Below are positions 3,062 through 18,258 of a DNA stretch of 64,000 nt, piece by piece. The DNA is taken from the NCBI GenBank assembly GCA_965368975.1, contig CBDUPA010000009.1, forward strand, positions 128,001 to 192,000, in the 5' to 3' direction. Made by a program: the position numbers and the translations under genes. Every line of letters begins with the position of its first letter. The stretch's first letter is position 1. This DNA comes from an uncultured bacterium (GTDB taxonomy: Bacteria > Acidobacteriota > Thermoanaerobaculia > Multivoradales > JAHZIX01). Under the pieces are notes generated by a model that was given only the letters and a program-made list of their open reading frames with translations, ran no database searches and had not been told where the DNA came from.

Positions 3062-3076
3062 GAAACGTCCTTCTCC

Positions 3077-4027
3077 TTAGCTATCGACGGGTGTGAGGCG
3101 GCTTGCGGGCATCAAGATCTGCAGCGCCGCCGGTGCGATGCGGAGGCGCACCGGTAGCTTCCAGGATAGTGGATCGCCGTCGAGTTGCAGCCGCACCCCC
3201 TCTGGGCCACGCAACCGCACCTCGCGCACTGTCGCACGTTCGAGGCCGGGCCGACCCCCGGCGACACCGAGCACCGTCGCCAGGGCGAGCTTGAGCGTCG
3301 ACCAGCGATCCCGCTGCCGCAGCAGGACGAGATCGAGCAGCCCGTCGTCCGGACGCGCGCGCGGCGCCAGCCGGAACGGCCCACCGTAGAGCGGTATGTT
3401 GCACACTGCGGCGAACGAGCCGGTCGCTGGCAACCCTGCCAGCGGCGGCTCCTGGTCCACCACCTCGACCTCGATCTCCGCATAGCTGTAGCGGCCCCAT
3501 TCGAGCAGCCCGCGCAGCAGCAGCCCACCGGCCCCGAAGGCGGCCTTCAGGCGGGCATTCTGCTGCGCCAGAATGTGGCCATCGAGCCCGGCGGAACACA
3601 TCATCAGGAACGGCTCCTCCCGCGACGCATCCGCCTCCGGCGCGCACAAACCGACGTCGAACGGCTGTGGCCGCAGCGCCCCAGCCTGCTCGGCGGCGCG
3701 CAGCGCATGGGCCGGCAGACCGAGGGCGCGCGGCAGCACGTTGGCGGTGCCCGCGGCCAGGATGCCGAGAGTGGTCGAGCTACCGAGCAGACCGCGCGCG
3801 GTCTCACGCTGGGTGCCGTCACCGCCGAGCGCGAAGGCGACCTCGGCCCCGGCCTCGACCGCCTCGCGTGCCAACCGCGTGGCGTCGCCCGGTCCCTGCG
3901 TCGGCCGGGGCTCGACGTCGAAGCCGGCCGCCCGCAGCAGACTCGGTAGCTGAAGCGCCAGGCGCCGCGCCCGACGACGGCCAGCCATCGGGTTGAAGAT
4001 CAGAACGGCGGGGCGTAGAGCAGTCAA
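3077..4027 (-). CDS. Diacylglycerol/lipid kinase family protein (YegS/DAGK-like)
   Basis: IFNPMAG, GGDGT, GTANVL, DDGLLD, QLDGD motifs. Confidence 0.88.
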   Translation of the reverse strand: MTALRPAVLIFNPMAGRRRARRLALQLPSLLRAAGFDVEPRPTQGPGDATRLAREAVEAGAEVAFALGGDGTQRETARGLLGSSTTLGILAAGTANVLPRALGLPAHALRAAEQAGALRPQPFDVGLCAPEADASREEPFLMMCSAGLDGHILAQQNARLKAAFGAGGLLLRGLLEWGRYSYAEIEVEVVDQEPPLAGLPATGSFAAVCNIPLYGGPFRLAPRARPDDGLLDLVLLRQRDRWSTLKLALATVLGVAGGRPGLERATVREVRLRGPEGVRLQLDGDPLSWKLPVRLRIAPAALQILMPASRLTPVDS

Positions 4028-4071
4028 CGTGGTGCTTCGCGCAATGGGTATCGGTCCGCAGCCGGGCCTTT

Positions 4072-5112
4072 TCAGTCTTCGAACAGGCTGCCCGTGGTGC
4101 CGGGACGCACCGGATAGCCAAGATGGCGGTAAGCCCGGCGCGTGGCGACACGGCCGCGTGGCGTGCGCTGCAGGAAACCTTCCTGGATCAGATAGGGCTC
4201 GTAGAAGTCCTCCAGCGTGCCGCGATCTTCCCCCACCGCCGCCGCCAGCGCCCGCAGGCCGGCCGGCCCACCGTCGTAGTGTTCGATCAGCACACTGAGG
4301 ATCTTGCGGTCCAGCTCGTCGAAGCCGAACTCGTCGACCTCCAGCAGTGCCAGCGCACTGCGGGCGGTTTCGAGATCCACCACACCGTCAGCCTCGACCT
4401 GGGCGAAGTCGCGCACGCGCCGCAGCAGGCGATTGGCGATACGCGGCGTGCCTCGGCTACGGCGCGCGATCTCCTCGGCACCCTCGGCCTCCATCGGGAT
4501 TTCCAGCAGACCGGCCGAACGGCGAACGATGGTCTCGAGGTCCGCCGGACTGTAGAAGTCCAGGCGCTGCACGATACCGAAGCGTGCGCGCAGCGGCGGC
4601 GAGATCATGCCCGCGCGCGTGGTCGCCCCCACCAGCGTGAAGCGTTGCAACGGCACCTCGATGGTCTGCGCCGCCGGCCCCTGGCCGATCACCAGGTCGA
4701 GGCGATAGTCCTCCAGCGCCGGATACAAGATCTCCTCGACCGTCGACCCCAGGCGATGGATCTCGTCGACGAACAGCACCTCCCCGGCCTCCAGGTTGGT
4801 CAGGATCGCGGCCAGGTCCCCGGCCTTCTCCAGCACCGGCCCCGAAGTGACGCGGATCGGCACATGCATCTCCTGAGCGACGATGTGCGCCAGCGTCGTC
4901 TTGCCCAGGCCCGGCGGCCCGAACAGCAGCACGTGATCCAGGGGCTCGCGGCGCTGCAAGGCAGCACGGATCGACACGTCGAGGTTATCCACGACCTTGG
5001 TCTGCCCAACGTACTCGTCGAGCAGACGCGGGCGCAGTGACGGCTCGGCGATCAGGTCGTCGTCGTGCGGCGCGCCGGACAGTAGGAAAGGATCGGGCTC
5101 CATCAAAGTCAT
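4072..5112 (-). CDS. ruvB: Holliday junction branch migration helicase RuvB
   Basis: [70 protein letters not shown]. Confidence 0.98.
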
Positions 5113-5126
5113 TCTACCCGCGGTGC

Positions 5127-6590
5127 TCAGGACTCCACGGGCGTGCTACGCAAGTACTCGACGAAGTTGCGCAGATGACGCAGCGCCCCCTCCCGCCCGT
5201 GCGCGGCCACCAGGTCGAACAGCGACGGCCCCGCCTTGCTGCCGCTGAGCGCCATGCGCGTCGGATGGATCAACACCCCAGCCTTGACGCCCAGCTCGTC
5301 GGCGGTGGCCCGCAGTGCTGTTTCCAGCGGCTCGACCTCGAAGGCGTCGAGCGCGGCGTAGGCATCGATCAGGCGTTCGACCTGCTCGGGCAGCTCGTCC
5401 TGCTTGAAGAACTTGGCGCACAGCTCGGCGTCGTAGTCCAGCCGCTCCTGGAAGTACGGCTTGACCACCTCGGCCAGTTCCGCCAGCGTGCGCGTGCGCG
5501 TGCGGTGCAGCTCGAGCGCCTGACGCAGTCGCGGCTGCTGCGCCTCGTCGAGATCGCCGAGACCGGCGGTGTCGAGGAAGGGCTGCAGGTAGGGCATCAG
5601 CTCGTCTAGCGGCTGGCCGGACATGTACTGCGCGTTCATCCAGCCCAGCTTGTCGACGTCGAACACCGCGGCCGAGCCGTTCAGTCGCTCGACGGTGAAC
5701 AGCTCGATCATCTGCTCGCGGCTCATCTGCTCCAGGTCGCCCCCCGGCGACCAGCCGAGCAGCGCCAGGTAGTTGTACAGCGCCGCTGGCAGCAGTCCCT
5801 GGTCGCGGAATTCCTCCACCGACGTCGCGCCGGTACGCTTGGACAGACGCTTCTTGTCCGGCCCCATGATCAGCGGTAGGTGGGCGAAGACCGGCGTCTC
5901 GGCAGCCAGCGCCCGGAACAGCTCGATGTGCTTGGGCGTGTTGGAGAGGTGATCCTCACCGCGGATGACGTGGCTGACCGTCATCTCGACGTCGTCGCAC
6001 ACCACCGACAGGTGGTAGGTGGGCGAACCATCGGAACGCAGGATGATGAAGTCGTCGAGGTTGGCCGCCGGGATCGTCATGTCGCCGCGCACCAGGTCGT
6101 GGAAGCAGACGTCCGCGTCGCCACTCTTGAAGCGCACCGCGTACGGTTCGCCCGAGTTCAGGCGCCGCTCGACCTCTTCCGGAGATGGCCGCTCGAACAG
6201 GTCCCGGTAGCGCGCCGGCTGGCTCGCCTTGACCGCCGCCTGCCGCCGCGCGTCCATCTCCTCCTGCGGCACCTGGCACGGATACGCCTTGCCCTCCGCC
6301 AGCAGCCGCTGCGCCGCCTCGCGGTGACGTTCGACGCCCTCGCTCTGCAGGAACGGCCCTTCGTCCCACTCGATGCCGATCCAGCGCAGGCCACCGCAGA
6401 TCTGCTCGATCATCGCCTGATCCGAACGCGCGCGGTCGGTGTCCTCGATGCGCAGAATGAACGCGCCGCCCAGGTTCTGTCGCAGCAGCTCGTTGTAGAT
6501 CGCGGTTCGGGCGCCGCCGACGTGGAGGAAACCAGTCGGCGACGGGGCGAAGCGGACGCGCACGGGTCCCCGCAGTGCGGTCTTGCTCAT
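5127..6590 (-). CDS. gltX: Glutamate--tRNA ligase
   Basis: [17 protein letters not shown] (HIGH motif), [24 protein letters not shown] (KMSKS equivalent). Confidence 0.97.
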
Positions 6591-6620
6591 GATGTCGTTT
6601 CTCCGAAGGGGGTTGTGAAA

Positions 6621-7226
6621 TCAGCCAGGAGTGGTGCTTGGACGCGCGCCGGTGGCCTCATGGGAAGGATCGTCGAGGTTGACACCGCGGCGCGAAAGCA
6701 ACCGGCGCAACCGACCATACAGCCCTTCCCCGAGCAGGCCGCGGCCGGCGGCAGTGAGATTTTGCAGCACGGAATGGAGGTCTTGCGAGCCGCTCCAGTG
6801 CTTGAGAGCATGGCGTTCCAGCTCTGGATCGAACGTATTCGCCAGCACCGCGATCGCCAGCACGAGGTCGTCCATGAACCCGGCCGGCCCAACCAGTGCC
6901 TCGGGCCACAGGTCGAACGGCAGGACGAAGTAGAGCAGCGCGCCCCCGATCAACGCGCGCGACCGCTCCGGCACCTCGCGGTCGAGCATCAGGCGCACCA
7001 GCAGCATGAAGACGTCCGGCACCAGCAGCAGCGCTTGCGCCGTCTGCTCCCCGAGCTTGCCGGCCTTCTTCTCGACGGTGCCGAGCACGCGCTGGCGCAG
7101 GCGGTCGTAGAAGTTGAGCAGCCGCGATTGCTGCAGCGCCGGCAGCTCGGAGGGGGCCGAGGTGGGCAGCAGTTCAGCGTCGAGGGGTTCGTCGAGTGGT
7201 CCGGCTGGGGCCGGGGTCGTGCTCAT
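6621..7226 (-). CDS. YkvA / DUF1232 family membrane protein
   Basis: LLLVPDVFMLLVRLMLD...ALLYFVLPFDLWPEALVGPAGFMDDL; ATG at 7226 chosen, because the longer ORF start overlaps the next gene. Confidence 0.8.
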   Translation of the reverse strand: MSTTPAPAGPLDEPLDAELLPTSAPSELPALQQSRLLNFYDRLRQRVLGTVEKKAGKLGEQTAQALLLVPDVFMLLVRLMLDREVPERSRALIGGALLYFVLPFDLWPEALVGPAGFMDDLVLAIAVLANTFDPELERHALKHWSGSQDLHSVLQNLTAAGRGLLGEGLYGRLRRLLSRRGVNLDDPSHEATGARPSTTPG

Positions 7227-7285
7227 CAGGACGATGGTACCACTGGGCGGGGGAGGGGGAGAGGGGCGTGCCGTTGCCCTCTGGT

Positions 7286-7312
7286 GTAGGGGTAGGCCCA
7301 TGTGCCTACCCT
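7286..7312 (+). repeat. GTAG-type REP-like palindrome at the left edge of the island
   Basis: GTAG followed by the stem GGGTAGGC-ccatgt-GCCTACCC. Confidence 0.5.
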
Positions 7313-7375
7313 GCGGCGACAGCCGCATCCGGATCCGGCCCCTGCCCCGCATCCGGTTAAGATGGGCGGCAGATC

Positions 7376-10300
7376 TTGGACGGAGAGGGAATCTTGGACT
7401 GTAAGCGTGAGACCGATGTTGTTGACTGGCGAGACATCCGTGGAAATAGGCATGCTTTCGACCGCTTTGTCGCGCTCTTGCACACTGGCGAGGCCATCGG
7501 ATTTGTCGGTGCTGGCGCGGGGGCCGGCCTGTATCCGCTGTGGCCAAAGCTGATCGAGCAGCTGGCTGATGCCGCGGTAGCGGCCGACGAGAGCAAGGCG
7601 GCTCTGAAGACCGCATGGTGTAGCAAGGACTTCGACCCCCTGCAAGCCGCTCAGCAGATCCGGGACTGCCTGGGAGAAGGCACTTTCGGGGAATGGATCC
7701 GAGGGATTTTCGGACCACGCGAGGGCACGGATGGCAAGCCCTACACCGCAACGCACGCGGCGCTAGCCCGCCTGGGCTTCAACGCCTTCGTAACCACCAA
7801 CTACGACCCCGCGCTCAAGCTCGCCTGCAGCGATGCAGGGCTGGGCAAGCTGGTGCAGGACTTCGACTGGCAGCACGACCGGGTCGGCCTGTGGTTGCAG
7901 GGTCAGCTCTCGACCGAGCGCGAGTTTTCGATCCTGCACGCGCACGGCAAGCATGACGACATCACGAGCGTGATCCTAGGCGCCAAGGATTACCGCCGAG
8001 CCTACGGTGATGAGCGTTACCAGGAGCTGTTCAAGCAGCTCTGGACGTGCCACCGCCTCGCTATCGTTGGTTTCAGCTTCGGTGACGCCTGGCTCAAGGT
8101 GATCGCAGACCAGGCACTCTCGAGTGTGGATGCAAGGAGGATCAGTGGGCCCCGGCACGTGGCCTTGTTGGGCTTGCCCGAGGAGCACATCAGCGCAGCC
8201 GAAGCCTACCGGGCTCAGGTCGAGGAGCCCTGGCACCTGCATGCACTCTTCTACCCGATCGTGACGAAGTCTGACGAGAACGGTGCGACCTACCCGGATC
8301 ACAGCGCCCTCGGCGATGTCTTGAAGAGGCTTCTCGGGGAGGTCGAAAGCCCCCGGGCGAAGGCAACGACCAAGGCTGCCAGACCCAAGACGGATCCCGA
8401 CCCGCTCGACGTCTGGTTCGGCCAGGTCGAAGCCGAACACCGCCGCCTCGGCGACCACTTCGACCGCCCTGCCGAGTTGCACCTGATCGAGCAGGCATGG
8501 GTCGAGGTCAAGGTCATGCCTGCCCACCAGGAGCGTCGAGACGTGCGGAGTGAGGATGTCGGAGACGGCAAGCTCCCCGGCCACCCAACGACGCTGGACA
8601 AGGTTCTCGATTGGCCCATCGGCTCGCCGAGCCGGAACGAGGGCCGGTGGCTGCTCGAAGGTCCGCCGGGCTCCGGCAAGACGACGCTACTGAGACACCT
8701 GGCAGCACGACTAGCACGAGGGAAGAGCCACGCTGCTATACCGGTCTTCGTCTCGCTCCCACGCCTGATCGAGACGGGACAGGAGCTTCTGACCCACGCC
8801 ACCGACGGCCTCGGCCTGGCCAACCTCTCCCCGGTGCGTGACGCTCTGGCGGCTGCTGGTCGAGCGGGTCGTCTCCTCTTGCTGCTCGATAGCTTCGACG
8901 AGATCCCACGCGAGCGCCGAGCCCCTGTGCGCCGACTTCTGACGCAGCTACGACAGGATGAAGCTTGGTCCAAGTGCAGGCTGGTTGTGAGCAGCCGGCC
9001 GATCGGGCGCGGCCAAGCGCTGGAAGAGCTACCACGACTCGACTTGTTACCTCTGGATTTTGGGCGGCGCCAGGAGTTCCTGGAGACCTGGTTCCGGTAT
9101 GCCGGCCAGCCTGAGTACCGCAGTGAGCCGGAGTGGACGCCTGAAGCGGAAGCAGCGCAGGCGATCACCTACCTCACGGATACCCGCGGCCTGCGAGACC
9201 TGAGCGGCATTCCGCTCTACCTGACCCTGCTGGCGGTGCTCTGGGAGCAGGGGGTACAACCCTCCGGCAGGCTGGCCGAGTTGTACGCCAAGATCTTCGA
9301 ACTGCTGCTCGATGGCGAGCATCGGCGCGAACCGCAGCCGATGCCAAACCAAGACGCTGTCCGCGAGGCGCTGCAGCACCTCGCCTTCGGCATGACCGAG
9401 GACGATTGCTGGGCCGAAGCGAAGAAGAAGCTCGAAGGGCGACTACGGACAGCGGAAGAGTTGTGTGATCGCTTGGGACTCGTTGCGGCCTGGAAGCGGA
9501 ATCTCTTCACCTTCCTAGACGACGTCCACGAACGGACGCAGATCCTCGGACCGCACGACGGCGGACGCGGTGACTGGCGTTTCTGGCACCGGACGTTCCG
9601 CGAAGCCCTTGCAGCGGAATGCCTGAAGGAGCATTACGCCGAGAGAGGGGACGGCGAGGCTCTGCTGGAGTGGGCTCGGCAACTGGAAGAAGGCGGCGAG
9701 GGTCGCTGGGGTGAGCCGCTGGCTTTGCTGGCAGGTGGGATGGATCATGCTGACGACCTGCTGTTGCAACTGGGCGAGGCAAACCCCAAGCTGGCGGTGC
9801 GTGCCGCGGTCTTCGCTCAGGGACTGAAGTCGGAGACGGTGCGGGCGACGCTGAACCTGACCGAGGGTGACCTGGACGAGCGCGCGCAGGTCTTCGAGAG
9901 CATCCCGGACCAACTCGGCGACCCCGACGCCTGCCTGGCGCTGGTGGAGCAGCTGCGACAGAAGGAGCGCAATGGCTTCGACCTCTTCTGGCTATGGTGG
10001 ATTGCCGAGGAAGCCGGGCGACGGTGGAAGGTGGAGTCGCGGGTGGCGGACGTGCTGGATCGGTTCTTCGAACACATCCCGGCACCGAAAGGTGCGGAGC
10101 TATTCCAGAGCGTCGAGTCCAAGCTGGATGGCCGGGTGCCGCTGTGGCGGGAGGTTCCGGAAGGAGAGGGATGGGTGGGGAGTCCGGAGGATGAGAAAGA
10201 GCGATGGGATTGGGAAGGACCGCGACACCAAGTGAGAATCGTCCGGCCATTCTGGCTCGGCTCGGTTCCGGTGACCAATGCACAGTACGCGGCCTTCGAT

Positions 10301-10885
10301 CCAGGCAAGGCGCCGGAGACGTGGGAAGGAGTCGAGCCAGAGAAGCTATTCGCACACCCTCGGGTGAACGTCACTTGGTACGAGGCCGTGTCGTTCTGCC
10401 GCTGGCTGGAGAGCCTGAAGGAGTTCGCAGGCTGTGGCGTGCGGCTACCCGAGGAAGAAGAGTGGGAGTACGCTTGCCGGGCCAGGACGGAGACGCGGTT
10501 CTGGAAGGGGGATGAGGCGCAGCAGCTGGCGGAAGTCGGCTGGTACGAGGACAACTCCGGGAATCGAACCCACCAGGTTGCTGGCAAGCCTGCGAATCCC
10601 TGGGGCCTGTACGACCTACATGGCAATGTGTGGGAGTGGGGAATCTCTGAATGGGATGAAGAGCGGTACCAGGGGCGGTCGTCCGAGGATGCCTATACGG
10701 CAGATCCTGCCGCCCCGGCGGCAGATCCTGCCGCCTCCCCCCGCGTCTGGCGCGTGTTGCGCGGCGGCGGCTACGGGAACGCGGCGCTGTGGTGCCGGTC
10801 GGCGTTCCGGGTCTGGTTCGACCCGTGGGTCGGGTGGGACGGGTGCGGGTTCCGTGTGCTGCTGTCCTCCGCCCCGAGCCGATAG
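7376..10885 (+). CDS. NLR-like protein: SIR2-like effector, NACHT/STAND NTPase and FGE-sulfatase (C-type lectin fold) domain; putative DGR target 1
   Basis: SIR2_2 motifs FVGAGAG, FVTTNYD, LHAHG, VGFSFGD; Walker A GPPGSGKTT and Walker B LLLLDSFDE; FWHRTFREALAA; CLec motifs VTNAQYAAF, VTWYEA, RLPEEEEWEYACRA, NPWGLYDLHGNVWEW, RVLRGG...GFRV. Start codon uncertain. Confidence 0.9.
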   Translation: MDGEGILDCKRETDVVDWRDIRGNRHAFDRFVALLHTGEAIGFVGAGAGAGLYPLWPKLIEQLADAAVAADESKAALKTAWCSKDFDPLQAAQQIRDCLGEGTFGEWIRGIFGPREGTDGKPYTATHAALARLGFNAFVTTNYDPALKLACSDAGLGKLVQDFDWQHDRVGLWLQGQLSTEREFSILHAHGKHDDITSVILGAKDYRRAYGDERYQELFKQLWTCHRLAIVGFSFGDAWLKVIADQALSSVDARRISGPRHVALLGLPEEHISAAEAYRAQVEEPWHLHALFYPIVTKSDENGATYPDHSALGDVLKRLLGEVESPRAKATTKAARPKTDPDPLDVWFGQVEAEHRRLGDHFDRPAELHLIEQAWVEVKVMPAHQERRDVRSEDVGDGKLPGHPTTLDKVLDWPIGSPSRNEGRWLLEGPPGSGKTTLLRHLAARLARGKSHAAIPVFVSLPRLIETGQELLTHATDGLGLANLSPVRDALAAAGRAGRLLLLLDSFDEIPRERRAPVRRLLTQLRQDEAWSKCRLVVSSRPIGRGQALEELPRLDLLPLDFGRRQEFLETWFRYAGQPEYRSEPEWTPEAEAAQAITYLTDTRGLRDLSGIPLYLTLLAVLWEQGVQPSGRLAELYAKIFELLLDGEHRREPQPMPNQDAVREALQHLAFGMTEDDCWAEAKKKLEGRLRTAEELCDRLGLVAAWKRNLFTFLDDVHERTQILGPHDGGRGDWRFWHRTFREALAAECLKEHYAERGDGEALLEWARQLEEGGEGRWGEPLALLAGGMDHADDLLLQLGEANPKLAVRAAVFAQGLKSETVRATLNLTEGDLDERAQVFESIPDQLGDPDACLALVEQLRQKERNGFDLFWLWWIAEEAGRRWKVESRVADVLDRFFEHIPAPKGAELFQSVESKLDGRVPLWREVPEGEGWVGSPEDEKERWDWEGPRHQVRIVRPFWLGSVPVTNAQYAAFDPGKAPETWEGVEPEKLFAHPRVNVTWYEAVSFCRWLESLKEFAGCGVRLPEEEEWEYACRARTETRFWKGDEAQQLAEVGWYEDNSGNRTHQVAGKPANPWGLYDLHGNVWEWGISEWDEERYQGRSSEDAYTADPAAPAADPAASPRVWRVLRGGGYGNAALWCRSAFRVWFDPWVGWDGCGFRVLLSSAPSR
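10736..10885 (+). repeat. Putative DGR variable region VR1 with 3' IMH-like segment (10847-10881)
   Basis: Only 6 A in 10741-10880; aligns codon-for-codon with 12832-12984 (minus strand), with differences concentrated at codon positions 1 and 2. Confidence 0.8.
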
Positions 10886-10887
10886 GC

Positions 10888-11186
10888 GATCTTAGATCAT
10901 AGAGAGTGTGGGTAAACCCGGCAGGCCGGCACAGCTTGCCGACCACCCTGGCTGATTCTGCCGGCAGTACTTCAGCAGATTGAGCCCAATCCCAGCTTTT
11001 CTGGTCGGAGTCAAGAGAGACATAGCGGTTGCTCCCGGCAAGATCTGCCGCCCCTGGTATCCGAGCTATCTGAACTCTGACCGGCAACAGCGCAACTTTG
11101 CCGGCTCGCACTGGGTGCCGGCCGATTCCTCCAGGGCTACCGGCAAGAATTGCCGCTCCGCCGGCAAGCCGGCAACTTCTGCCACC
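10888..11186 (+). repeat. ~300-nt non-coding element downstream of target 1 (left arm of a long inverted repeat)
   Basis: Homologous to the reverse complement of 12532-12832; shared blocks GATCATAGAGAGTGTGG, TTCTGCCGGCAGTA, CAACAGCGCAACTTT, CCGGCAAGA; several GGCA..TGCC hairpins. Confidence 0.85.
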
Positions 11187-11285
11187 CGGCACACGCCGCT
11201 GCACAGAACCGCGCAAATTTGCATTTCACCTTCGAGAAACGTCTACAAAGAGAGAGCAGACGAAACGAACCTTCGAGACAAAGTC

Positions 11286-11646
11286 ATGGAACTCTCCGCC
11301 CGCGCCGCCGCTACCCTGATGGGCCGCAGTCCGCGCACCGTCCGAGCCCAACTGGCTCGCGGGGATCTTCCAGGTGTTAAGCGCGAGGGGCGCTGGTGGA
11401 TCGATCGGTCGAACCTGCCCCTCACAGACGCACAGCGGCGTGGCCTTCACGCCAAGGCAGATCAGGTGCGCTCGGTTGTAGAGCACGCTCTGCCTTCACG
11501 AGCGGCGCAGCGGCTTGGTGAGCGGACACGGTCCGTCGCGGACTTGGACGGTTTCCGCCTGGGTGCCGACGTCCTGGCTTCCTTGCGCGCGGCTGAGGCC
11601 AGCGACCTTGCCCCCGAGGAGCGAAGAGCCGTGGCCTGGCGCCTGG
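11286..11646 (+). pseudogene. HTH (excisionase/MerR-like) protein with the start of a four-helix-bundle/Avd-like domain, truncated at the RT junction
   Basis: MELSARAAATLMGRSPRTVRAQLARGDLPGVKREGRWWID is HTH_17-like; SVADLDGFRLG resembles the four-helix-bundle N-terminal motif; after AVAWRL the frame runs on as non-protein-like sequence over the RT to a stop at 12053. Confidence 0.65.
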
Positions 11647-12531
11647 TTCCTCTTCCTGGAGGAGCAGTTGGAGGATCTGCAGGCCGAGCTTTCGGCCGGC
11701 ACCTACCGGCCGCAGCCGTGCGACTTCGTCTCGATCCGCGATCCCAAGCCGCGCGTCATCGCCCGCACCCTGCTGCGCGACCGCATCGTGCAGACCGCGG
11801 TGGTGCACCAGCTCGACCCGATCTTCGAGCCGACCTACACCCACGACGACTACGCTTGCCGTCCGGGCTACGGCACGCACCGGGCGGTGCTGCGCCTGCA
11901 GGAGTTTCAACGCCGCTACCGCTTTGCCCTGCACCTGGACGTCCGCTCCTACTTTCCGTCGATCGACCGCGACATCCTGCTCGCCTTGCTGAGTCGGCGC
12001 ATTCGGGACGTCAGGTTCCTGGATCTCGTCGCTCGGTTGCTCGCGATCGGTGACGAGCTACACGGGCACCCGGAGCTGCGCAAGCTGGCTGGGCTCGACC
12101 CCGACTGGCCTCCGCCGGGTCGTGGCTTGCCGATCGGCGCCCACAGCAGCCAGATGCTGGCGGCACACGTCTACCTCAACGGCTTCGACCACTGGGTCAA
12201 GCGGCAGCTGAAGGTACCGGCCTACTTGCGCTTTCTCGACGACACCTTCTATTTCGCCGACGGTCGCCGCAAGCTGGAGCGCTGGCGCAAGAGGATCGCT
12301 GAGTGGCTGATGGCCGAGCGCGGTCTGCGCTTAAAGCACCCGCAAGCCCGTATCGTCTCGTGCCATGGTCATCTCAACGCCCTGGGCCACCGGATCTCGC
12401 GCCAGGATATCCACTGTCTGAAGCGCCCCTTGCGGCGCTTGCACCGCCGCATCCGCCAGCATCTCGACGGCAGCTTGGACGTCGAATTGGAACGGACCAT
12501 CGCCTCCAGCGTTGGCATCATTCTGTTCTGA
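11641..12531 (+). CDS. DGR-type reverse transcriptase, N-terminally truncated or frameshifted
   Basis: GTYRP, RDPKPRVIA, RDRIVQ, YACRPGYGTHRA, LHLDVRSYFPSID, GLPIGAHSSQ (DGR-type SQ), YLRFLDD. No maturase or endonuclease tail, and no convincing start before AWFLFLEEQL. Confidence 0.85.
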   Translation, partial: AWFLFLEEQLEDLQAELSAGTYRPQPCDFVSIRDPKPRVIARTLLRDRIVQTAVVHQLDPIFEPTYTHDDYACRPGYGTHRAVLRLQEFQRRYRFALHLDVRSYFPSIDRDILLALLSRRIRDVRFLDLVARLLAIGDELHGHPELRKLAGLDPDWPPPGRGLPIGAHSSQMLAAHVYLNGFDHWVKRQLKVPAYLRFLDDTFYFADGRRKLERWRKRIAEWLMAERGLRLKHPQARIVSCHGHLNALGHRISRQDIHCLKRPLRRLHRRIRQHLDGSLDVELERTIASSVGIILF

Positions 12532-12832
12532 GGTGGCATGTTTGGCCGGCTTGCCAGGTGCGGGTGGCAAGTCTTGCCGGCAACCCTGGCAAGATCGGCT
12601 GGAACCCTGAGAAGGCCGGTAAAGTTGCGCTGTTGACGGTCAGAACTCAGGTGGCTCGGGTGCCAAGCGCGGCAGATATTGCCGGATACGACCCGCCCAA
12701 TCTGGCTCGCCTTGGCAAGTATTCTGGCGATCTGGCGAACTCTGGCGATCTACTGCCGGCAGAAACGGCCGAGTCGGCCGGCAAGCCCTGCCGGCCTGCC
12801 AGCTTCATCCACACTCTCTATGATCAAAGATC
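12532..12832 (-). repeat. ~300-nt non-coding element downstream of target 2 (right arm of the long inverted repeat)
   Basis: Reverse complement aligns essentially gap-free with 10888-11186; begins immediately after the RT stop codon (12529-12531). Confidence 0.85.
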
Positions 12833-12984
12833 TACGGCCGGCTCGGGGCGGAGGACAGCAGCACGCGGAACCCCAGGCTCCGGAACACGACCCACGGGTG
12901 CCACCCGTCCCGGCACGCCGACCGGCACCTCTGCGCCGAGTCCCAGCAGCTGCCGCCGCGCACCACGCGCCCGACGCGGGGGGA
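12832..12984 (-). repeat. Putative DGR variable region VR2 with IMH-like segment (12839-12873)
   Basis: A-poor on the coding strand; the 35-nt 3' block matches VR1 with 1 mismatch. Confidence 0.8.
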
Positions 12985-15900
12985 GGTGGCAAGATCTGCC
13001 GGGTGGGCAGCTGGCTCGACCGGATGCGGTGCCTCCGAGGTCCGTCCTTTGTAACGCTCTGCATCGAACTCGGACGCTGTCCACTCCCAGACGTTGCCAT
13101 GGACGTCGTAGAGCCCCCAGGCATTGCCGGGTTTTCCACCCACAGGATGCGTGGTTCCCTCTATGCCTTCCCCGTACCAACCAACCTCGGCCAGTCGCTC
13201 CTCGTCCTCGCCATTCCAGTACCGCGCTTCCGATCCCGCCCGGCACGCGTACTCCCAAACTTCCTCTTCTGGCAGGCTGGGGGCCGCACCCTCGAAACCC
13301 GGCTGGCAGGCCAGCCAGCGGCAGAAGGACACCGCCTCGTACCAGGTCACCACGACCTGAGGATGCGTGGCCAGCTCTTCTGGGTCGATGCCTTTCCAAC
13401 GATGAGAGTTCTTGCCCGGATCGAACGCTGCGTACACGGCATTCGTGACCGGTACCGCCGACAGCCAGCAGTCCGCCTGCAGTTCGACCTGATGTCTTGG
13501 TGTCTCGCGCTTCCGCTGGTCGTCGTCGACCTCATCGTCTCGGGAACCCACCCAGCCGACTCCCGCAGGAATTCGACACCACAGATCCTTCTCCTCGCCG
13601 TCCGGCCGCTGCCAGCGGCGCAGTAGCTCCGGATCCTCCACCTTGGGCAGATCATCGTAGATGCGCCGGCGCAAGCTCTCCGCCCGTTCGCGCAGGCCTT
13701 CCGAGGCTTGCCCCACCTGCCAGGCCGCATGGTCCAGGAAGTAGAGGTCATTGCCGTTGCGCACGCCCTGGCGCAGCCGATCGATCAGCCGCAAGCAGCG
13801 CTCCGGGTCCCCGATCAGCTCCGGCAACTGCTCGTAGACCTTCGACCGCTCCTCCCACTTATCCGTCAGCTCCAGGACCTCGCGCACGGTCTCGTCGCTG
13901 ACATTCTGCGCTGTCGGTAGGGCGCGCAGCGCGAGATCCCGATTGGCCTTCATCAGCTCCTCGAGCAAGGCATCCGCGTCCTCGACCCCGCCACACACCA
14001 GCGCGAAGGGCTCCGCCCACCGGCTCTCCTGCCCTTGCACCTCCCGGGCATGCTGGAGCAGGGTCTTGGAGTCCCACTCCGCCATTCGCTCGGCAGTCAG
14101 CGCTTCCTTGAAGGTCCGGTGCCAGAAGCGCCAATCCGCATCGTGGCCATCGTGCGGTCCGAGAATGCCGACCTTCTCGGCGACATCTTCCAGGAAGAGA
14201 TCCACCTTGCCATCCCAGCGATGTACCTTGCGCAACTCCTCGCGCACCGCCGCCAGGTCGTCCCGGTACATGCGTTCCTGCAGCTGCCCGAAGCGTTCCG
14301 CATCGCAGTTGTCGCAGGTCATCGATTCGGCGAGCAAGCGCAAGGTCTGGCGCACCAGCTCGGGGCGCTGGATCTTGTCGAAGCTCTTGTCGCCGGAGCC
14401 CAGCTTGTGCTTGCCTTCGATCAGCAGGTCGAACACCTGATCGTAGAGCTTGGAGCGGTTGCGCGACGGCTTGACGCCGTCTTCGAGCAGCAGGGCCATG
14501 AGTGTCAGGTAGAGGGGATTGCCGGTGAGTTCTTCGAAGCCGGGACCGTCGAGTTCGCGCAGAGCGTCCCTGGCTCGGGCGTGGTCCTCTTTCTTCTCGT
14601 TGCGCCCGAACCAGCGCGCCAAGAACTGGAGACGGCGCTCGCGATCGAGGGGTTGGAGCTGGAGTTCCTTGAAGCTGCCATCGAAGCGCCGATAGCCGAT
14701 GGGGCGCGTGGTGACGACGATGGGCGTGGTGGGCCAGCGGTCGGCAAGGCGGCGGACCTGCTGCTCGGCCTCGGGCCGGATCTCGGCGCTGACTTCGTCG
14801 AGGCCATCGAGCAACACGAGCAGCCGGCCTTCTTCGCCGGCATGGTCGAGGACACGGCCGGTACCCTCTCCAAACCCTTGACGCGCCATCTGTGTCTCGA
14901 CGCGATCCAGCAGGGACTTGCCGTCGCGCAGCAGCACGGGCAGCGACTGAAAGAGGGGGATCCAGCGTCGCTCGGCGTTCTTGGCCAGCTTGGCGGCGAG
15001 GTGGCGCAGGAGGGTGGTCTTGCCGGAGCCGGGATCGCCGCGCACGATCCAGCGCCGGGTCACCCATGGGTGTCGGGCTGGATCCAAGTCGAGTAAGTCT
15101 TCCAGGCTCTGATAGGGACGCAGAGGCTCCGCTTCTCCGAAACCACCAGATTCGGGGGAGTCGGCATCCCCCGTTCTTCCGGACGGCCGCCGCCGGGCCA
15201 GCTGGCCTTGCTCAGCCGCAGTCAGTTGCAGCTCGACATAGACGCGATCGAGCAGGACGAGTTCCTGATCGCGCTGGAAGGCCGGCACGAGGCGTTGGTG
15301 GGTGGACTCGACGTAGTGGAGCCAGGCGCTCAGGAGATCGTGCTGGTGTTCCTTGGGTATCGCGGCCTGGTGTTGTTGCAGCCCCTCGCGGAGCGCATGG
15401 AACTTGGCGATGCCGGCGTCTGAGGGTTCGACCTCCTCTTGGACAACATCCAGCACACGCTGAGCGCCAGCTGCCGGGTCATCGTCGCCGGTTGCCAGAA
15501 CGAGGGCGGCGGCGGCACGTTCTTCGGCGGCCTGGAAGTCGTCCAGGGCCTTACGGCTGTCGAGCCCCAGCGCGGCGGCCAGACCCCGGTAGGCGATCTT
15601 CTCGACAAAGAAGGGGGCCAGGGCATCGACGACCTGCCGGCGGAGAGACGGCGGCAAGCGACGTGCCGCGCCTGGATCGCCGACCGTGGCGGGCAAGTCT
15701 TTCTCTGTACAGCCGATGTACTTGGAGATGATCTTGGACAGGTCGATGCGGTACGCGTCGACACCGGCTTGCTCTTCCGTGCTTGCGGAAGCGATGCGCT
15801 CGAAGCGCTGCCGCAACCACGACGGCCAGGGCGTCGGCGCGAGATCGACAGCGAGCAGCTTACGGTCCGAACTGTGGCACAGCGTGTCCTTCCACAGCCG

Positions 15901-16560
15901 CCGCAAACTGCTGTGCGCCAGCGCTTCCGGCGAGACGAGAACCACGCCGACACTCGCGTCGGCAGGCACCTCGGGCCAGGGCTCGTCCTCCGACGGAATC
16001 CCCACCTCGACGCGCGCCAGCCCCTTGGGATCGACTTCGCGCAGACACGCTTGCAGATCTGCCGCCAACGCTTCGGCCCACTCCCGATCCACCGGTGCGG
16101 CGCTGAGCCACCAGACGGGCGGGTCGTTGCGGAAGAAGGCGCCGAAGAAGAGTTCGACGAGATACGGATGCCTACGGGCGCGTTCTTCGAGTTCGGTGCG
16201 ACCGAGGAACTCGGTCTCCAGGTCTCCGGCTTCCTTTTTGACGCGAGTCTCGAGATTCTTCGACAACGCACACGTCGCCAGCAAAGACCAAGCCTTCGGT
16301 TTCGGCTCTGGCGGATCGGCCAGAACCTTCCGGATCTCCTTCAGCGCCTCCGCCGGCCCCAATTCCTTCACCCGCTTGCACTGCGTCACCACCCGCCGAC
16401 CCTTCGGATCGACGCTGATCAGGTCGCAACCTTTGTCGTTGCCGGCATCGCCCAAGTGGCGCAGCTGCGTATGACCTTCAGCCCCCAGCAACGCGAAGCA
16501 GAAGCGCTCGAAAGCCTTGGCGCTGAGGGAGTGGAACTGCAGCTCGGTCGAAGCACGCAT
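12832..16560 (-). CDS. NLR-like protein: Mrr-type restriction endonuclease, TIR-like region, NACHT and FGE-sulfatase/CLec domain; putative DGR target 2
   Basis: FERFCFALL...DKGCDLI...VVTQCKR (Mrr_cat PD-(D/E)xK type); WLSAAPVDREWAEALA (TIR-like start, weak); GDPGSGKTT, LVLLDGLDE, FWHRTFKEALTA; NAWGLYDVHGNVWEW, RVVRGG...GFRV. Confidence 0.88.
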   Translation of the reverse strand: MRASTELQFHSLSAKAFERFCFALLGAEGHTQLRHLGDAGNDKGCDLISVDPKGRRVVTQCKRVKELGPAEALKEIRKVLADPPEPKPKAWSLLATCALSKNLETRVKKEAGDLETEFLGRTELEERARRHPYLVELFFGAFFRNDPPVWWLSAAPVDREWAEALAADLQACLREVDPKGLARVEVGIPSEDEPWPEVPADASVGVVLVSPEALAHSSLRRLWKDTLCHSSDRKLLAVDLAPTPWPSWLRQRFERIASASTEEQAGVDAYRIDLSKIISKYIGCTEKDLPATVGDPGAARRLPPSLRRQVVDALAPFFVEKIAYRGLAAALGLDSRKALDDFQAAEERAAAALVLATGDDDPAAGAQRVLDVVQEEVEPSDAGIAKFHALREGLQQHQAAIPKEHQHDLLSAWLHYVESTHQRLVPAFQRDQELVLLDRVYVELQLTAAEQGQLARRRPSGRTGDADSPESGGFGEAEPLRPYQSLEDLLDLDPARHPWVTRRWIVRGDPGSGKTTLLRHLAAKLAKNAERRWIPLFQSLPVLLRDGKSLLDRVETQMARQGFGEGTGRVLDHAGEEGRLLVLLDGLDEVSAEIRPEAEQQVRRLADRWPTTPIVVTTRPIGYRRFDGSFKELQLQPLDRERRLQFLARWFGRNEKKEDHARARDALRELDGPGFEELTGNPLYLTLMALLLEDGVKPSRNRSKLYDQVFDLLIEGKHKLGSGDKSFDKIQRPELVRQTLRLLAESMTCDNCDAERFGQLQERMYRDDLAAVREELRKVHRWDGKVDLFLEDVAEKVGILGPHDGHDADWRFWHRTFKEALTAERMAEWDSKTLLQHAREVQGQESRWAEPFALVCGGVEDADALLEELMKANRDLALRALPTAQNVSDETVREVLELTDKWEERSKVYEQLPELIGDPERCLRLIDRLRQGVRNGNDLYFLDHAAWQVGQASEGLRERAESLRRRIYDDLPKVEDPELLRRWQRPDGEEKDLWCRIPAGVGWVGSRDDEVDDDQRKRETPRHQVELQADCWLSAVPVTNAVYAAFDPGKNSHRWKGIDPEELATHPQVVVTWYEAVSFCRWLACQPGFEGAAPSLPEEEVWEYACRAGSEARYWNGEDEERLAEVGWYGEGIEGTTHPVGGKPGNAWGLYDVHGNVWEWTASEFDAERYKGRTSEAPHPVEPAAHPADLATSPRVGRVVRGGSCWDSAQRCRSACRDGWHPWVVFRSLGFRVLLSSAPSRP

Positions 16561-16599
16561 CGAGAGACCTCCAAAAACGTCGAAAAGACGTCGGAGATC

Positions 16600-18258
16600 T
16601 TACCCCGTGCGCATGAAGTGCCAGCGCAGATCCCCTTCGAAGCGCTGGTAGACCTCCGGCTGGATCCGCTGCTGGAACTCCCGCAGCACCGACGACAGGT
16701 GCGCGCCGCGGGCGACGGCCTCGATGGCGTCGGCGGCGTCGGCTCCGGCGCGGCTGATGTAGGTCTGCCACACAGCTTGCCGCACCGATCCCGTGGACAG
16801 CGAGATGTTCGGCATCTTCGCCACGCCGCGCTTCAGGATCGAGAGCTTGTGCTTGAGGCTCTTCTCGTCGTCCATGGCTTCGCGCTGCCAGGGGGTGAAC
16901 GGCTTGGGCACCAGCACGCTCGCGCCGAGCTGGATGTGACCGATGATGCCGGTCTCGCGGGCCAGCTCTTCGAGCATGATGCTGCGAGCTTCGGCGGCGA
17001 GTTCAAGGATGCCCTGGATGTCGTCGAGCGTTTCGTCCGGCAGGCCGACGATGAAGTAGAGCTTGAGCTGGGTCATGCCGCTACGGAAGATGAGGCGGAT
17101 CTTGTTCAACAGGACGGAGTTGGGGATCGGCTTGCCCATCTTGCGGCGCAGCTCGTCGGTGCCGGTTTCGGGCGCCAGGGTGATCGAGCGATCGCCGCTG
17201 CGGTAGAGGGCGTCGAGCACGGACTCGTTGACGGCGGGGATGCGGATCGACGAGACGGAAGCGCGGAAGCCGAGGTCGACGGCTTGCTGCAGGATCTTCG
17301 CCACTTCCGGGTGGTCACCGACGGCGGTGGCGACGAAGCCGACCTGGTCGGTGAAGTCGCGGGCGCGTTCCATGGCGTCGAGGATGTAGCCAGTGGGGTG
17401 CCAGCGGAATTTCCCCATGCCGAAGGTGGCCCAGCAGTAGCGGCACTTCTCCGGGCAGCCGCGCGACATCTCGATCAGGAACTTGTTGGCGAACTCGGTG
17501 TGCGGGGTGAGGATGCTGCTGGTGGGCAGGTGGCCAGGGAGTTGCATTTGCTCGGAGGTAATTTCGAGCTTGCGCAGTTTGTCGAGGCCGTCGAGTTCGT
17601 GGATGTGGTGGTGCGCCGGCACGAAGAAGCCGGGCTTGGACGCAAGCTGCTCCAGGACGGCTTCGCGCGCGTGCTTGTTGCCGTCGGCGTCTTCCAGGCT
17701 AGCGAGGAGCGGGGTAACCAGGTTCTCACCGGAACCGAGCGCGAAGACGTCGACGAACTCGGCCATCGCCAGGGGGTTGATCGAGGCGCAGGAGCCGCCC
17801 ATGACGATCAAGGGATCCCACGGACCGCGGTCGCGACGGCGGGCGGGGATGCCGGCGCGGTCGAGCATGCGGACGAGGTGCACGTAGTCTTCCTCGAAGG
17901 AGACCGAGAAGGCGATACAGCCGAACTCGCTGAGCGGCGTGTCGGCCTCGACGGACAGCGGCATTTCCACCGGAGCGTGTGCGCGGCCGCCGTTGGCCGT
18001 GATGCCGTCGAGAAAGAAGCGCTGACACGACCAGTTCGGACGCGCGTGCACCAGCTCGTAGATGCGCTGGAACGCCAGGCTCGACATGCCGACGTGGTAG
18101 CTGTTGCCGTAGGCGAGCGCTAGCCGGTGGTCACCGTGGTGGTTGAAGTCGCGCAGGGTGCGCTCGTCAGCGCGGTGCTGGCCCCAGTCGTGGCGTTGAG
18201 AACTCTTGGCCGCTGTGCCGCGACGGCCACGACCGCGCGCGGTGGATCGCTTCGCCAT
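16600..18258 (-). CDS. Radical SAM protein (YgiQ/TIGR03960-like)
   Basis: YHVGMSSLAFQ, IEMSRGCPEKCRYC (CxxxCxxC), LAPETG, KLYFIVGLP, VPKPFTPWQ; ATG at 18258. Confidence 0.88.
   Translation of the reverse strand: MAKRSTARGRGRRGTAAKSSQRHDWGQHRADERTLRDFNHHGDHRLALAYGNSYHVGMSSLAFQRIYELVHARPNWSCQRFFLDGITANGGRAHAPVEMPLSVEADTPLSEFGCIAFSVSFEEDYVHLVRMLDRAGIPARRRDRGPWDPLIVMGGSCASINPLAMAEFVDVFALGSGENLVTPLLASLEDADGNKHAREAVLEQLASKPGFFVPAHHHIHELDGLDKLRKLEITSEQMQLPGHLPTSSILTPHTEFANKFLIEMSRGCPEKCRYCWATFGMGKFRWHPTGYILDAMERARDFTDQVGFVATAVGDHPEVAKILQQAVDLGFRASVSSIRIPAVNESVLDALYRSGDRSITLAPETGTDELRRKMGKPIPNSVLLNKIRLIFRSGMTQLKLYFIVGLPDETLDDIQGILELAAEARSIMLEELARETGIIGHIQLGASVLVPKPFTPWQREAMDDEKSLKHKLSILKRGVAKMPNISLSTGSVRQAVWQTYISRAGADAADAIEAVARGAHLSSVLREFQQRIQPEVYQRFEGDLRWHFMRTG

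Follow-up and report, generated by a model that had tools for sequence, protein, structure and literature searches.

A probably decayed diversity-generating retroelement between two intact, apparently once-diversified NLR-like sensor genes of an uncultured bacterium

Introduction

Diversity-generating retroelements (DGRs) diversify proteins that combine NACHT/nSTAND and C-type lectin (CLec) domains; the text of Dore et al. (2024, PMC10907252), as far as it is considered here, calls them "putative antigen sensors", describes them as carrying peptidase or TIR effectors, mostly as two targets to a DGR, and sorts loci into classes in which one is complete and the others are "degenerate", with the machinery absent or pseudogenised. 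Coupling of FGS and DGR in conflict systems is also on record (Kaur et al., 2020, in the part considered here). We analysed a locus in a 64,000-nt stretch of DNA, called the window as a whole (positions 128001-192000 of contig C9), from the 7.13-Mb, 59-contig genome of an uncultured bacterium (completeness 99.3%, contamination 0.09%), in which two genes resembling NOD-like receptors (NLRs) converge on a helix-turn-helix (HTH) gene and a reverse transcriptase (RT) gene. We consider it quite probable that this locus is a decayed DGR copy between two intact, formerly diversified NLR-like sensors and that it does not diversify itself. DGR-diversified NACHT-CLec sensors and degenerate loci have already been published, and the new features appear to be the cis-elements and the HTH accessory gene described below.

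The likeness to the systems of Dore et al. lies in a variable repeat (VR) within a C-terminal CLec domain of the formylglycine-generating enzyme (FGE) type on a NACHT protein with an N-terminal effector, in the two targets, and in several related loci per genome. The differences are the SIR2_2 and Mrr_cat effectors ("SIR2" occurs 0 times in the text of PMC10907252), the Acidobacteriota-labelled host ("Acidobacteri", likewise 0 times in that text), and the HTH_17 accessory gene, the palindromes and AT-rich box flanking the VRs and the strict convergent mirror, for which the supplements of that paper may show similar layouts. With the DGR of Bordetella phage BPP-1 (mtd-avd-TR-brt) the present system shares RT homology, adenine-only differences between template repeat (TR) and VR, a GC-rich VR 3' end resembling the initiation of mutagenic homing (IMH) site, TR adenines at codon positions 1 and 2, and Avd in intact relatives (bAvd, 58 bits in the relative G429). 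Unlike the phage system, it is chromosomal and has two oppositely oriented targets and an extra HTH gene, the window copy is without TR and Avd, and the IMH-like end is followed by an AT-rich direct-repeat box and not by the GC-rich inverted repeat of BPP-1. Antiviral STAND proteins (Avs and bacterial NACHT proteins with SIR2, nuclease or TIR effectors) have the same tripartite build of effector, NTPase and sensor; the sensor here differs in being a DGR-written CLec/FGE domain in place of TPR-like repeats, and a defence role is putative here.

According to the portion of Wu et al. (2018, PMC5758913) considered here, DGRs have four accessory gene classes (avd, HRDC, MSL and CH1) in 48 architectures, ~13% of them have two targets, and one TR may serve VRs far from the RT (Treponema and Legionella types). 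The window VRs differ from such remote targets in matching the sole available TR over part of their length only. Our literature search returned no paper that connects DGRs to an accessory gene of the HTH_17/excisionase type, to palindromic sites, or to Acidobacteria plus NACHT. Nor were an HTH_17 accessory gene, a bracket of palindromes, an AT-rich box or SIR2/Mrr outputs found in print; supplements outside this search may hold such architectures.

In the following, G000 denotes this genome (contigs C2, C9, C15 and C16) and G001, G002, G038, G375 and G429 denote relatives. All Pfam matches reported for the two sensors and for the HTH_17 and RVT_1 open reading frames (ORFs) exceed the curated cut-offs, except that of TIR_2 in T2.

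Results and Discussion

Two intact sensors with an adenine footprint

The sensors T1 and T2 (Table 1) both have the NLR-like STAND layout by Pfam, with an N-terminal effector, a central NACHT NTPase and a C-terminal sensor: T1 matches SIR2_2 (PF13289; 59.3 bits, cut-off 24.5), NACHT (67.7) and FGE-sulfatase (128.8), and T2 matches Mrr_cat (PF04471; 28.9 bits, cut-off 21), NACHT (52.4) and FGE-sulfatase (125.2). A P-loop (GxxGSGKTT) and a Walker-B-like LLLDxxDE motif can be read in both translations. The two proteins are 43% identical across 865 residues, from just ahead of NACHT through the C-terminus, and comparison of their N-termini gave no similarity. An earlier note on this DNA, written from the sequence letters, had described a forward SIR2-NACHT-CLec gene and a reverse Mrr-NACHT-CLec gene, homologous in NACHT and CLec and unrelated at their N-termini, converging on an HTH and RT centre; this arrangement is real. 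The same note called it head-to-head, and the genes are in fact convergent, that is, tail to tail around the central HTH_17 and RT ORFs. Judged against their paralogs on another contig of this genome, C15, by the ratio of non-synonymous to synonymous substitution (dN/dS), T1 and T2 are intact and maintained by purifying selection, with values of 0.22 and 0.21 for the whole genes and 0.08 and 0.12 for the NACHT or middle part.

The VRs occupy the last ~47 codons of the FGE-sulfatase domains. A blastn search (word size 7) found the VR family at only five sites of the genome, namely VR1 and VR2 of the window, two VRs of C15 (VRa and VRb) and one non-coding copy on C15. This last copy is a bona fide TR: over 152 nt it differs from the adjacent VRb by 10 mismatches, all at the 28 adenines of the TR and 0 elsewhere, and 27 of these 28 adenines fall on codon position 1 or 2. 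The HTH ORF of C15 reads through the TR in the reading frame of the VR. When the first 74 nt of the four VRs are aligned, variation falls on 14 columns, precisely those of the 14 TR adenines, and the 60 other columns are all constant (chance 2.2e-15); dN/dS within the VR segments reaches 1.11 for VR1 and 2.29 for VR2. All four VRs have one common 3' end, with a single A>G difference from the TR. This adenine-only footprint in the first 74 nt of VR1 and VR2 indicates that the binding sites of both window sensors were written by adenine mutagenesis in the past.

Loss of TR, Avd and the RT N-terminus

An ungapped, adenine-tolerant scan found no TR in the window, and a genome-wide scan for a short-form TR, using the 107 columns invariant among the three short-form VRs (VR1, VR2 and VRa), gave 3 matches, which are those VRs themselves. 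Comparison with C15 and the relatives locates a deletion junction at a GCCTGG microhomology, where the 3' part of the HTH gene (HTH-X), Avd, the TR and RT codons 1 to ~34, roughly 1 kb of the canonical cassette, are gone. In the C9-C15 alignment, 474 nt of C15 with the TR and the RT start are represented by only 125 nt of C9; these 125 nt are continued HTH-X sequence (72% identity to residues 1-113 of G002 HTH-X by tblastn), which joins the RT at ~codon 35 out of frame. The HTH-X ORF continues to 12053 out of frame over the RT, and the RT open frame (11515-12531; RVT_1, 47 bits) has a TTG at 11515 as its start and an N-terminus that is not homologous. The N-terminal RT segment that C9 has lost is conserved in the three full-length relatives compared (C15, G002 and G038). 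We also considered 11515-11640 as a diverged RT N-terminus and rejected this, the segment being the continuation of the G002 HTH-X gene. No match to Avd was found on C9 by tblastn with the G002 and G038 proteins; elsewhere in the genome, the last 25 residues of Avd are left on C15, and the sole full homolog lies on C16 in a different DGR.

Several comparisons support an RT of the DGR kind and not of the group II intron, retron or UG/DRT (defence-associated RT) kind. It is 31.8% identical to BPP-1 brt (E = 1e-20); its best PDB match is 8ub7_A (E = 1.8e-31), which we take to be bRT, compared with 5.8e-23 for GsI-IIC, an RT of a group II intron; the NCBIfam RT families all stay below their cut-offs (group II RT 115.6 bits against 300, retron St85 33.1 against 235, Drt3a 35 against 200); the best UG model of PADLOC (E = 5.9e-20) is far behind the generic RT model (E = 5.5e-42); and Pfam finds no maturase domain in the RT. 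The kind of RT proposed in the earlier note is therefore supported, and the complete cassette that it assumed is not found, since TR and Avd are absent and the RT has lost its 5' part. Its idea that a DGR diversifies both receptors fares similarly: past diversification agrees with the footprint and the VR dN/dS, and present self-diversification is not supported, because there is no TR, no Avd and no conserved RT N-terminus. We reject an autonomous DGR, as there is no TR in the window and none matching a full VR anywhere in the assembly. The opposite outcome named in the earlier note as fatal to its idea, a non-DGR RT and no TR in this genome or its relatives, did not occur, because a partly matching TR lies on C15.

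Table 1. Coordinates of the features in the window (contig C9) and in the paralogous mirror locus (C15:1-14000)
Contig	Feature	Position	Strand	Comment
C9	T1 sensor, SIR2_2-NACHT-FGE/CLec	7376-10885	+	1169 aa, intact ORF; Pfam and translation
C9	Two CGGCAGATCCTGCCG palindromes	10698-10733		Within coding sequence, directly 5' of VR1
C9	VR1, 140-nt short form including IMH-like 3' end	10740-10879	+	11 mismatches to C15 TR in first 74 nt, all at TR adenines
C9	Left non-coding arm	10886-11185		AT-rich box 10888-10909; palindromes at 10927, 11036, 11141, 11170
C9	HTH_17 accessory gene (HTH-X)	11286-11650	+	ATG at 11286; ~120 codons homologous to the 196-aa gene of G002
C9	Deletion junction, GCCTGG microhomology	11640-11655		Comparison with C15 and relatives
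C9	RT body	11655-12531	+	Homologous to C15 RT from residue ~35 to stop codon
C9	Identical run, 1,099 nt	11722-12820		100% to C15 6849-5751 (RT body and right arm); C9-C15 comparison
C9	Right non-coding arm, inverted copy of left	12530-12831		AT-rich box 12811-12832; palindromes at 12565, 12670, 12757, 12779
C9	T2 sensor, Mrr_cat-degenerate TIR-like-NACHT-FGE/CLec	12832-16560	-	1242 aa, intact ORF; Pfam; TIR-like part as we read it
C9	VR2, 140-nt short form	12841-12980	-	9 mismatches to C15 TR in first 74 nt, all at TR adenines
C9	Palindrome, one mismatch to pattern	12987-13001		Directly 5' of VR2 in coding sense
C15	Ta	2002-5733	+	
C15	RT	6040-7053	-	
C15	HTH ORF	7118-7636	-	
C15	TR	~7187-7338	-	
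C15	Tb	8041-11523	-	

Probable copying from the paralogous locus on C15

The segment 7484-16607 of C9 is homologous to C15 with ~81% identity, and the neighbouring genes are old paralogs, with synonymous divergence (dS) of 0.58 for T1, 0.81 for T2 and 0.64 for the HTH gene. The C15 locus holds an intact RT and the genome's only TR of the window VR family; it has no full Avd, having suffered its own, independent deletion of the remainder of HTH-X and of Avd except for the aforementioned 25 residues. Within this diverged background, the RT body and right arm of the window form the perfectly identical run of Table 1. Its left edge is 67 nt away from the deletion junction, and these preceding 67 nt hold 5 differences. 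The pattern suggests recent gene conversion or templated repair from C15. Since the left end of the run lies within ~70 nt of the junction, a single event may lie behind the two; in that case the window's own TR would have been lost recently, and this would explain why three 140-nt VRs (VR1, VR2 and VRa) are without a TR in the assembly.

The same two observations, three short-form VRs without a TR partner and a perfect 1.1-kb repeat inside two contigs whose flanks are ~81% identical, could also arise if the missing TR and the identity were assembly artefacts and the real locus had a complete cassette with its own short-form TR. We regard this as highly improbable. The junction joins HTH-X codon ~120 to RT codon ~35 over only 6 nt of common sequence, which is too short for a jump in a k-mer graph, and the identity fades gradually at the left edge of the run. 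Moreover, the same interval has been deleted independently on C15 and in G375, a third and further reduced mirror locus exists on C2, and the aforementioned contamination is very low.

Possible service from C15

Another explanation is that the window sensors are still diversified in trans by the TR and RT of C15, possibly with the Avd of C16, so that one donor would serve four sensors in two mirror loci. In the first 74 nt, VR1 and VR2 deviate from the C15 TR at adenines alone; they also have the same IMH-like 3' end as VRb and keep the AT-rich box, which is found only 3' of VRs (4 of 4 occurrences in the genome). There are published precedents for remote targets and for action in trans (Wu et al., 2018, PMC5758913), and for degenerate yet still diversified loci in nature (Dore et al., 2024, PMC10907252), within the portions of these papers considered here. 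The half of the repeat next to the IMH speaks against this explanation. VR1, VR2 and VRa are 140 nt long, whereas the C15 TR and VRb are 152 nt, 12 nt longer, and in the IMH-proximal half the non-adenine or gap columns relative to the TR number 22 for VR1 and 17 for VR2. Marker transfer in DGR homing has a 3'-to-5' polarity. The IMH is the starting point of homing (Wu et al., 2018, PMC5758913, in the portion considered here), so a single event from the present TR should convert that half, and 0 of the 3 short VRs have been converted; because of this we judge that the short VRs are not currently served by the C15 TR. The C15 locus is, in addition, itself without a full Avd. Taken with these points, diversification in trans appears unlikely to us.

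The repeat lengths also have a history. The VR and TR repeats of G002, G038 and G375 measure 142-146 nt and align without gaps, and the 140-nt short form therefore looks ancestral. The derived 152-nt form is common to TR and VRb, so information must have passed between these two after the form arose, and the three short VRs have not been overwritten since then.

Some points weigh against our preferred reading of the window locus as a decayed copy that no longer diversifies itself. The window VRs retain all that VRb has on the recipient side: their IMH-like 3' end is identical, and AT-rich box and palindromes are in place. This leaves room for homing in trans from C15. The RT frame is open over 349 aa with no stops and might still yield an N-terminally altered enzyme. 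The portion of Wu et al. (2018, PMC5758913) considered here reports 29% of DGRs without accessory genes and functional TR/VR pairs of unequal length, so that the absent Avd and the 12-nt difference are weaker arguments than they appear. Finally, a short-form TR could sit in unassembled sequence, the assembly consisting of 59 contigs at 99.3% completeness.

The mirror layout in relatives

A survey of synteny in relatives, which the earlier note had proposed, was run and found the mirror layout conserved in G038, G375 and G429. The relatives are Acidobacteriota-labelled metagenome-assembled genomes, the closest being labelled Acidobacteriota and Thermoanaerobaculia, and they have in common the mirror layout, the HTH accessory gene and the VR-flanking palindromes and AT-rich box. 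Such near relatives are scarce, with RT matches at E <= 1e-70 in 4 of 401 sampled genomes of the class. Convergent FGE targets surround the cassette in all five loci in which both sides are visible (C9, C15, G038, G375 and G429). A single TR serves both VRs in G038, G375 and G429, where adenine and other mismatches to the TR number 13 and 1 for VR(-) and 13 and 4 for VR(+) of G038, 13 and 0 for VR(+) of G375, and 9 and 0 for VR(-) and 13 and 2 for VR(+) of G429.

In G002, target and arm are followed by HTH-X (196 aa, HTH_17), by a bAvd-like Avd of 133 aa whose 36 bits stay under the cut-off of 40, and then by TR and RT; this order fits the mirror layout, and the G002 contig begins inside the left VR. 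The symmetry in G002 reaches 97 nt into the 3' end of the RT, an inverted fossil copy of which lies upstream of the HTH gene (G002:C4 421-517 compared with 2803-2899). This fossil points to an origin of the mirror by inverted segmental duplication, and suggests that the duplicated segment comprised the 3' end of the target, the arm and the RT end. A full mirror DGR lies between two NACHT-FGE genes in G429 (C70:4000-23000), with HTH-X (HTH_17, 55.7 bits), bAvd (58 bits), TR and RT. G429 belongs to another family of the phylum and its RT is 38% identical; the two target genes are inverted repeats over 3.1 kb, and the arms contain arrays of CGGCAA/TTGCCG half-sites. In G375 (C474 6630-7133, reverse strand) another deletion of the accessory region has fused the HTH in frame to the C-terminal half of Avd, and in G038 (C43 ~11040-12740) a frameshift lies inside HTH-X; the accessory region is thus unstable across relatives, and the TR/VR differences of G375 and G038 are adenine-specific despite the altered accessory genes.

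The third mirror locus of the genome (C2:333000-352000; ORFs at 10739-13000 +, 13296-13571 - and 13664-17296 -) has a TIR/SEFIR-Pkinase-FGE and a Metallophos-NACHT-FGE gene converging on an 80-aa HTH ORF and only a C-terminal remnant of the RT; its palindromes are of another kind (TTGACA...TGTCAA type), and its HTH has another putative recognition helix. About 9 kb away lies a 637-aa RVT_1 + GIIM protein, a group II intron-type RT (2599-4512 -). A DGR of a different type is found on C16 (C16:84000-102000), with co-oriented STAND-FGE targets at 4883-8110 and 9988-13203, Avd at ~8183-8521, TR at 8587-8717 and RT at 8841-9959; its RT is 39% identical, and its two VRs show adenine/other mismatches of 22/5 and 22/15. 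This other type, found on C16 and in G001, has no convergent layout. A search of metagenome contigs gave 28 loci, none above 40% RT identity, and added no close relatives; a search of genome contigs gave 15 loci, of which L019 alone was looked at and was too fragmentary for layout, as was the 3.5-kb contig of G359 too short.

Inverted arms, palindromes and the HTH gene

The inverted symmetry of the window extends from about 10300/13420 to 11185/12530, ~300 nt beyond both stop codons, and its non-coding arms are 72% identical (221 of 307 columns). The long inverted arms of the earlier note are thus confirmed, and the layout, which it did not recognise, is not peculiar to this locus and is the conserved architecture of a small clade. 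An Rfam search for known RNAs in the arms gave only two sub-threshold chance matches (E = 0.91 and 0.92), and a promoter and terminator scan with 1 promoter-like site and 0 terminators was uninformative.

With 0.28 sites expected, the window contains 8 copies of the palindrome CGGCA-N5-TGCCG, 7 of them falling within 10698-12793; the genome contains 64, with 14 inside the C9 and C15 loci. We considered the palindrome as a genome-wide element of the repetitive extragenic palindromic (REP) kind and set this aside, since 64 sites compared with ~27 by chance (a composition estimate) suggest a background excess that is mild at most. It stands directly 5' of 8 of the 8 visible VRs in G000, G002 and G038 (one with a mismatch) and precedes 0 of 4 TRs and 0 of 2 G375 VRs. 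A coding constraint (...ADPA/ADLA...) may contribute to the copies 5' of VRs and cannot explain those in the arms. An inverted match of 32 nt (78%) between 7354-7385 and 11032-11063 lies just upstream of the T1 start codon and contains GGCAGATCTTG; the stretch 7354-7385 fails the palindrome pattern at <=1 mismatch.

The 7.1-Mb genome has exactly 4 copies of the AT-rich box, GATC[AT]TAGAGAGTGT, and every one of them immediately follows a VR stop codon. Both arms of G002 carry the box as well, as do both of G375, and G038 has a diverged form; the third VR of G002 has no box and is the VR with 10 non-adenine mismatches. At the right end of the 1,099-nt run (C9 12820; C15 5751-5745), one 7-nt unit of the GATC-containing direct repeat in the box region differs between the two contigs.

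Over its first 77 codons HTH-X has a dN/dS of 0.06 between C9 and C15 (28 synonymous and 6 non-synonymous differences), with both cassettes decayed, and the HTH gene is retained in all three mirror loci of the genome (C9, C15 and C2). Sampling 401 genomes of the phylum turned up a full-length HTH-X in two, G000 and G429, and the G429 copy again lies within a mirror DGR. From these features we infer that the HTH protein would bind the palindromes and remain in use after the retroelement is gone, serving either to regulate the sensor pair or to mark recipient genes. Since the gene outlives the retroelement, it may also control the expression of a potentially suicidal sensor pair. A broader and rather doubtful idea is that the clade carries an undescribed targeting or regulatory layer, in which the HTH_17 protein, the palindrome arrays presumed to be its sites on both sides of every VR, and the genome-unique AT-rich box directly 3' of each IMH would together mark recipients so that one TR and RT can write into oppositely oriented, even remote sensor genes.

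Predicted outputs and genomic context

The N-terminal domain of T1 is, by its family match, a SIR2 of the defence type (SIR2_2) and a predicted NADase. T1 matches the LmuA (E = 6e-17) and ThsA (E = 2.6e-7) models of PADLOC, which found no system match for the locus, and the NCBIfam antiphage model EruA reaches 35.1 bits against a cut-off of 1000. The N-terminal family of T2 is rare, with 8 proteins at E <= 1e-5 in a collection of 5.8 billion proteins. Mrr_cat is matched in 9 of 9 aligned members, with D46, Q60 and K62 invariant, which we take to be the catalytic D...QxK residues of the Mrr fold. Between Mrr and NACHT, TIR_2 reaches a weak 15.5 bits, below its cut-off of 28; it is matched at E <= 0.05 in 3 of 9 family members, and a PDB profile search gave no TIR match. 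The segment aligns to the true TIR (74.9 bits) of the G375 homolog, where T2 has RRLW in place of ADEW, whose E is presumably the catalytic glutamate. We read it as a degenerate TIR scaffold without that glutamate, so that of the "Mrr/TIR-like" label in the earlier note the Mrr part stands and the TIR part is weak.

On its flanks the locus has housekeeping genes, which encode RuvB, a Glu/Gln-type tRNA synthetase of class I and a radical SAM protein, and no phage-like genes were found among the 7 flanking ORFs scanned.

Proposed course of events and significance

On these grounds the region would be one of at least two paralogous copies (C9 and C15) of a chromosomal module, ~9.1 kb long, that occurs in a small clade labelled Acidobacteriota. 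In this module two convergent effector-NACHT-FGE/CLec sensors surround a cassette of HTH-X, Avd, TR and RT, with one TR apparently serving both oppositely oriented VRs in intact relatives. A ~1-kb deletion at GCCTGG probably took the 3' part of HTH-X, the whole Avd, the TR and RT codons 1 to ~34, and the remaining RT body and right arm would have been overwritten by the C15 copy through gene conversion or templated break repair, perhaps in the same event. At present the sensors would most likely be fixed-specificity STAND proteins, in which ligand binding by CLec/FGE would be followed by NACHT oligomerisation, with NAD+ depletion by SIR2 (T1) and DNA cleavage by Mrr (T2) as the predicted outputs; new variants could appear only if the TR and RT of C15 act in trans.

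The window locus is, in this reading of decay, a relic rather than a working machine for hypermutation. Among bacterial systems, DGR-written NLR-like sensors come closest to immune receptors that are diversified somatically, and to our knowledge none has been characterised experimentally. The SIR2/Mrr outputs, the conserved HTH gene, the palindrome arrays and the AT-rich box offer handles for reconstitution. This one genome contains a natural series of a donor-competent locus (C15), a freshly disabled one (the window) and a nearly erased one (C2), with the sensor pairs intact in all three, and the series makes it possible to test what becomes of "adaptive" receptors after loss of their diversifier and which cis-elements define DGR recipients.

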